Part shown: positions 6,801 to 6,951 of the stretch, piece after piece | How the letters are laid out: every line of letters starts with the position of its first letter | Position numbering within the stretch: position 1 is the stretch's first letter | Origin: Escherichia coli | GTDB taxonomy: Bacteria > Pseudomonadota > Gammaproteobacteria > Enterobacterales > Enterobacteriaceae | Reading direction: 5' to 3' (one strand) | Length of the DNA stretch: 6,951 nt | NCBI RefSeq assembly: GCF_003334335.1 | Contig: NZ_QOWQ01000074.1 | Program-made: the position numbers and the translations under genes | The notes under the pieces: model-generated | What the model saw: the letters and a program-made list of their open reading frames with translations, nothing else | Database searches by the model: none | Told to the model about the DNA's origin: nothing

Positions 6801-6859
6801 GTTGATCGAATGGATGCGAATCGCTGATCGGACTTCGATGCCAATCCGTGATCGAATAG
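6801..6859 (-). repeat. IS21-family right-end terminal repeats: inverted copies of the 17-bp left-end repeat (ATGCGAATCGCTGATCG 6814-6830, ATGCCAATCCGTGATCG 6838-6854) plus a partial inner copy, each with GATC
   Basis: The reverse complement of 6838-6854 is CGATCACGGATTGGCAT, which matches the left-end consensus CGATCAnnnTTTGGCAT. Spacing is 24 bp, as at the left end. Confidence 0.7.
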
Positions 6860-6951
6860 AGCGGAATACGCAGCGGAGGCTCACACCTTTGACTCTGTGA
6901 AATTTATTCTGACCACCGCTCTCGCCGGTGGTCTGCTGGCTGTTCCCCTGC

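Follow-up and report, generated by a model that had tools for sequence, protein, structure and literature searches.

The right-hand edge of a 6,951-nucleotide stretch of Escherichia coli DNA (the window) raises the question of what kind of sequence lies in a reading frame that opens beside an IS21-family insertion sequence (IS) and runs off the end of the DNA. Frame 3 is shut by a TGA at 6849-6851 and is open from 6852 through the end of the window, with the translation SNRAEYAAEAHTFDSVKFILTTALAGGLLAVPL and a GTG codon at 6897. A sequence-only reading had described this open frame and its GTG, both of which we saw again on reading and translating the DNA, and had proposed either that a membrane or secreted protein begins here or that this is the downstream part of a gene interrupted by the IS21-family element. 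The second proposal proved right: the frame is almost certainly the 3' continuation of yeeR, split by the IS.

Identity of the right-edge frame and its 5' counterpart

The length of the frame is unremarkable, with at least 33 open codons lying behind 43% of the position and frame combinations sampled in this window. At the level of sequence, the evidence for coding in 6852-6951 is homology, not ORF length. A search with 6870-6951 found matches in 2201 of 5426 complete E. coli genomes. Positions 6875-6951 are identical at 77 of 77 nucleotides to yeeR of K-12 MG1655, a gene annotated as 'hypothetical protein' in most other genomes. The K-12 match falls at codon 88/89 of yeeR in prophage CP4-44, where agn43 lies upstream and yeeS, yeeT, cbeA and cbtA lie downstream. 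The frame 3 reading coincides with that of yeeR: GAG at 6876 encodes Glu89, GTG at 6897 encodes Val96, and Leu113 is the last residue with a complete codon. yeeR is the second gene of the agn43-yeeR-irmA cluster of CP4-44-type genomic islands of E. coli, and in the window the 3' end of agn43 is followed by an IS66-family element, a 5' stub of yeeR, the IS21-family element and the remainder of yeeR:

1-1088, plus strand: 3' end of agn43 (identity to K-12; a PGAP autotransporter pseudogene in strain G1/2)
1180-3932, plus strand: IS66-family element in the agn43-yeeR spacer (comparison with intact loci, PGAP, translations)
3970-4234, plus strand: 5' fragment of yeeR, running from the ATG through codon 88 to base 1 of codon 89 (identity to K-12 and SK1144)
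4235-6872, plus strand: IS21-family insertion sequence, ISSso4-like, 2638 bp (limits of plasmid-copy matches and four further copies)
6852-6872, plus strand: part of the open frame that belongs to the right end of the IS, SNRAEYA (IS limits and terminal repeats)
6873-6876, no strand assigned: junction bases GCGG (comparison with intact alleles)
6876-6951, plus strand: yeeR codons 89-113 (EAHTFDSVKFILTTALAGGLLAVPL), plus base 1 of codon 114 (identity to yeeR)

The open frame is thus a composite: its first seven codons come from the IS end, the eighth is a junction codon and the other 25 are yeeR. It had been placed immediately outside the right end of the element, but the IS ends at 6872 and takes in both 6852-6872 and the TGA just before it; that this part is open is fortuitous, and none of it belongs to the gene. 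After two junction bases (6873-6874) the gene resumes at 6875/6876, and 6876-6951 corresponds to a loop and predicted transmembrane (TM) helix 4 of YeeR. That the entire open frame might be a chance ORF in non-coding DNA beside the IS is scarcely credible. Its ordinary length and its seven codons of non-coding IS end would suit such an origin, but from 6876 both frame and sequence are those of yeeR, which refutes it for 6876-6951. Against it also stand the 414 hits to the YeeR family, down to 30% identity and across Proteobacteria, and the conservation of F93, S95 and K97 in 40 YeeR homologues.

The right-edge frame is co-linear in IS-free genomes with an open fragment reported at 3970-4248, a relationship that the sequence-only reading had raised. 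In BLAST alignments, 3933-4234 matched the first part of yeeR and the DNA upstream of it, with 100% identity in K-12, 100% in SK1144 and 98.7% in strain 7/2, and 6875-6951 aligns in these three IS-free loci to the directly following bases. With respect to K-12, both pieces are therefore fully identical, in the same frame and downstream of agn43. The left-hand fragment stands as yeeR for 3970-4234, where it encodes predicted TM helices 1-3 (hydropathy), whereas 4235-4251 is IS sequence: translation enters the element, adding VQNGI from 4235 on, and stops at 4249-4251. Uninterrupted yeeR in IS-free genomes reads ...ATCGCGCTGGAGGCTCAC..., the two pieces abutting as ...ATCGCGCTGG followed directly by AGGCTCAC... 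(at the junction itself, ...GCGCTGG followed by AGGCTCAC...). The interrupted allele in the window instead reads ...ATCGCGCTGG, then the IS from TGCAAAATGG... to ...GAATACGCA, then GCGGAGGCTCAC....

Only 76 nucleotides of the yeeR remainder lie in the window; the rest was taken from the near-identical strain G1/2 (NZ_CP060083), not from the window's own genome. In G1/2 the gene continues for about 725 codons past the equivalent of the window end. When 3970-4234 was joined to G1/2 DNA beginning at the position that corresponds to 6877, the result was a yeeR of 2517 nucleotides and 838 codons, free of gaps and stops and equal in length to intact alleles. The reconstructed gene is identical to the intact SK1144 allele at 2503 of 2517 nucleotides (99.4%), and its product at 835 of 839 translated positions (stop symbol counted). 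Because the remainder is otherwise undamaged, the insertion appears to be recent. The conserved neighbourhood of yeeR is present, with agn43 upstream in the window and, as read from G1/2 and intact loci only, a downstream block of irmA, DUF905, DUF932, antirestriction, JAB, cbeA and cbtA genes.

The IS21-family element and its junctions with yeeR

To set the limits of the element, we compared the IS with 30-bp flanks against plasmids. Across 506 records the modal limits were 31-2668 of the query, which correspond to window positions 4235-6872. Reading four independent copies together with the DNA around them showed that they have the ends TGCAAAATGGCATC... and ...GAGCGGAATACGCA in common, and the copy in the window likewise has terminal TG...CA. 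The element carries consecutive istA (transposase, 4467-6001) and istB (AAA+ helper, 6018-6773) genes, and PGAP names the IstB protein 'IS21-like element ISSso4 family'. Arrays of terminal repeats of about 19-23 bp are typical of IS21-family ends, and arrays of this kind lie at both ends of the element, the last right-end repeat being 6849-6867. It thus has the gene pair, the TG...CA termini and the multiple terminal repeats of its family, and resembles ISSso4 in each of these features. Identity is 99.3-99.6% to many copies on E. coli, Salmonella and Klebsiella plasmids and about 96% to copies on Shigella sonnei plasmids.

Two features set the window copy apart from other ISSso4-like copies. 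The first is the loss of 1 bp after 4823, judged against plasmid copies, which frameshifts istA and accounts both for the split istA ORFs and for the 'frameshifted' flag given by PGAP. Transposition without transposase from another copy is improbable as a result, and the window copy probably cannot move unless another copy supplies the enzyme. The second is an imperfect target duplication. The insertion point lies after the first base of yeeR codon 89, in the loop between predicted TM helices 3 and 4, and is flanked by GCTGG on the left (4230-4234) and by GCGG on the right (6873-6876), with a T missing and only GG exactly duplicated. All 10 carrier genomes that we found have the GCGG form.

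This imperfect duplication is the sole unexplained detail of the locus, and the right junction is to that extent more than a textbook insertion. Direct target duplications of 4-8 bp are characteristic of IS21-family elements, and those of four other copies of this IS are perfect, at 6, 4, 7 and 6 bp, a contrast that could point to a secondary event, such as recombination between insertion sequences or a small adjacent deletion, as having joined the two yeeR pieces to one IS in place of a single insertion. We consider this very improbable: apart from the one missing T, the flanks abut with nothing lost or gained, the reconstructed gene has exactly the length of intact alleles, and two independent insertions that recombined would leave the intervening DNA deleted or inverted. 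The simplest account of the imperfect duplication is that 1 bp was lost from the right-hand copy of a 5-bp GCTGG duplication.

The two junctions were also searched for one at a time among 5426 complete E. coli genomes. A common set of 10 genomes has both, about 2.64 kb apart, which indicates one inherited event. Strain G1/2 is one of these carriers and differs from the window over the shared 6.9 kb by two substitutions and by a 76-bp indel within the tnpC region of the IS66-family element.

Some smaller observations concern the right end. The last seven nucleotides of the IS (ATACGCA) resemble ATATCGC just upstream of the insertion point, and this likeness accounts for a gapped BLAST alignment that reached into the IS end. 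The loop that holds the insertion site is gapped in 10-12 of 40 YeeR homologues. On the minus strand, a 53-codon ORF with a GTG start spans 6723-6884, crossing the right end of the IS and the junction; it consists of IS terminal-repeat sequence and 12 nucleotides of flank, and we take it to be a chance ORF.

The second insertion sequence in the window lies upstream of yeeR. Positions 1-1179 are 98.9% identical to 2530-3708 of the K-12 locus (L001), in which agn43 ends at 3617. The IS66-family element that follows has an exact 8-bp target duplication, GCATTAAC, on its two sides (1172-1179 and 3933-3940), and in two intact loci (L003 and L004) the equivalent of 1179 is joined to that of 3933 with an 8-bp overlap. 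Its tnpA has a nonsense codon, TGA at 1282-1284, where G1/2 has TGG, and its tnpB is broken. The tnpC ORF (1969-3570, 533 aa) is intact in the window, whereas that of G1/2 is 76 bp shorter and frameshifted. The IS66-family element is decayed and separates yeeR from the agn43 promoter.

Expression of the yeeR remainder and comparison with known clusters

We conclude that an ISSso4-like element of the IS21 family transposed into yeeR between the first and second bases of codon 89. As a result, the 5' piece (3970-4234) encodes a 93-residue stub made of 88 YeeR residues and VQNGI, terminated by a stop from the left end of the IS, and the 3' piece, from 6875/6876, lacks a start codon and ribosome-binding site. 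The frame of the remainder happens to be open for eight codons backwards, through the junction bases and into the terminal repeat of the IS, and this coincidence accounts for the ORF that appears to begin at 6852.

We asked whether the remainder could be translated from a start of its own. The proposal that a membrane or secreted protein begins at GTG 6897 fails on three grounds: the codon is the internal Val96 of an 838-residue protein, its Shine-Dalgarno match is 1/6, and the position is not conserved, being Leu, Ile or Gly in YeeR homologues. The hydrophobic stretch that follows it is predicted TM helix 4 (residues 95-113, hydropathy). Among the 12 in-frame ATG, GTG and TTG codons in the next 900 nucleotides, no Shine-Dalgarno match exceeds 4/6. 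A scan of 6500-6951 detected neither a sigma-70-like promoter nor an intrinsic terminator, and an Rfam search of the whole window gave no match.

With no terminator found after istB, transcripts could read through from the IS into the remainder. Such read-through, or an outward promoter in the IS end, might drive an N-terminally truncated membrane protein from GTG 6897 or a later in-frame start, that is, YeeR without TM helices 1-3. A frame with no stop over about 750 codons in the near-identical G1/2, the lack of a terminator-like site between istB and the IS end, and the hydrophobic helix behind the GTG are all compatible with a protein of this kind, but the poor start sites, the lack of a promoter-like site and the PGAP pseudogene call make it highly improbable. 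In G1/2, PGAP describes the remainder as 'hypothetical protein, incomplete, missing N-terminus', beginning at the equivalent of window position 6870 in the same frame. Most likely the yeeR remainder is an untranslated pseudogene fragment. We infer that it is not expressed from the want of a start with a Shine-Dalgarno sequence, the want of a promoter-like site, the upstream IS66-family element and published data on strain CFT073.

Those data concern the same gene cluster. In strain EC958, agn43, yeeR and irmA are co-transcribed from the agn43 promoter (PMC4807369). In the uropathogenic strain CFT073, an IS downstream of agn43a, between agn43 and yeeR, disrupts yeeR-irmA transcription, and experiments showed that IrmA is no longer produced from the agn43a-yeeR-irmA copy (PMC4807369). 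Strain 042 has an irmA with its own promoter, and disruptions of the cluster by insertion sequences are reported to be frequent (PMC9431211). The window resembles CFT073 in having insertion sequences within the agn43-yeeR region; unlike CFT073, it has an IS66-family element in the spacer plus an IS21-family element inside the yeeR coding sequence. This copy of yeeR has consequently been inactivated twice, once by being cut off from the agn43 promoter and once by the splitting of its coding sequence. The K-12 copy is also truncated, but at its 3' end (510 aa compared with 838 aa), through a deletion that took irmA with it (PMC6480617), whereas the window copy is split after codon 88 by the 2638-bp IS.

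The yeeR remainder is an ordinary IS-disrupted pseudogene, already annotated in reference genomes. These results settle the annotation of the right edge, which holds the second half of yeeR and no new gene; frequent decay of the cluster by insertion sequences had been described before.

Predicted architecture of YeeR

What wider interest the locus has lies in YeeR itself, which is widespread and appears to have a conserved, nuclease-like core, giving a testable hypothesis. The protein has been called uncharacterised (PMC4807369). Family members are typically about 830 aa long and occur in Gamma- and Betaproteobacteria. Intact yeeR lies at 4738-7254 of locus L004. In Pseudomonas and Dyella, homologues are stand-alone genes in unrelated contexts and have no conserved partner, so that genomic context gives no functional clue.

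Database comparisons placed a Pfam domain, YeeR_C (PF27347), in precomputed results for a 99%-identical cluster (P0001) and for homologues, in a part of the protein encoded past the window. Our own Pfam-A scan of full-length YeeR gave no PF27347 match and only a sub-threshold match to C19orf12, and NCBIfam returned no family for the full-length protein. Sequence searches of solved structures, with the single YeeR sequence or with a domain profile, found nothing, and none of the sequence methods tried ties the central domain to a named nuclease family. A weak PHROGs match to a tape-measure protein falls in a low-complexity helical region, and we judged it meaningless.

We therefore describe the architecture from an AlphaFold2 model (pLDDT 77), hydropathy and conservation, which together suggest five or six TM helices at the N-terminus. 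Residues ~205-370 appear to hold two winged-helix-like domains followed by a four-cysteine motif (C333, C336, C356 and C360), all four residues of which are invariant and which may form a zinc ribbon. The winged-helix-like domains and putative zinc ribbon suggest nucleic-acid binding on the cytoplasmic side of the membrane anchor. Beyond them, the same sources suggest a highly conserved alpha/beta domain at ~405-530 and then a helical tail rich in glycine zippers.

The ~405-530 domain models as a PD-(D/E)xK nuclease-like fold. Proteins of the PD-(D/E)xK superfamily have a core alpha-beta-beta-beta-alpha-beta fold, and their catalytic motif consists of a Glu in helix 1, an Asp in strand 2 and (D/E)xK in strand 3. 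Across 40 homologues, YeeR residues E415, D442, Q451, K453, E485 and D489 do not vary. The residue two before K453 is thus an invariant Gln (QxK), not the Asp or Glu of the PD-(D/E)xK motif; judging from sequence conservation, E485 and D489 could substitute for the missing acidic residue.

Taken together, the TM helices, tandem winged-helix-like domains, Cys4 zinc ribbon, PD-(D/E)xK-like domain and glycine-zipper tail would be the parts of a membrane-anchored nuclease distantly related to the putative PADLOC defence system PDC-M09B. On this reading, which we regard as possible but doubtful, YeeR could have served the island in defence or exclusion, a role that this lineage would have lost to the IS; in a lesser variant, the remainder would still be expressed without TM helices 1-3. 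A nuclease-like and possibly defence-related role of YeeR is put forward as a hypothesis and not as a finding. A literature search found no paper on PDC-M09. The ~405-530 domain and the tail match PDC-M09B weakly and co-linearly, and this module of domain and tail occurs in 1034 representative 50%-identity clusters, with varied N-termini that in some cases carry Sel1/TPR repeats.
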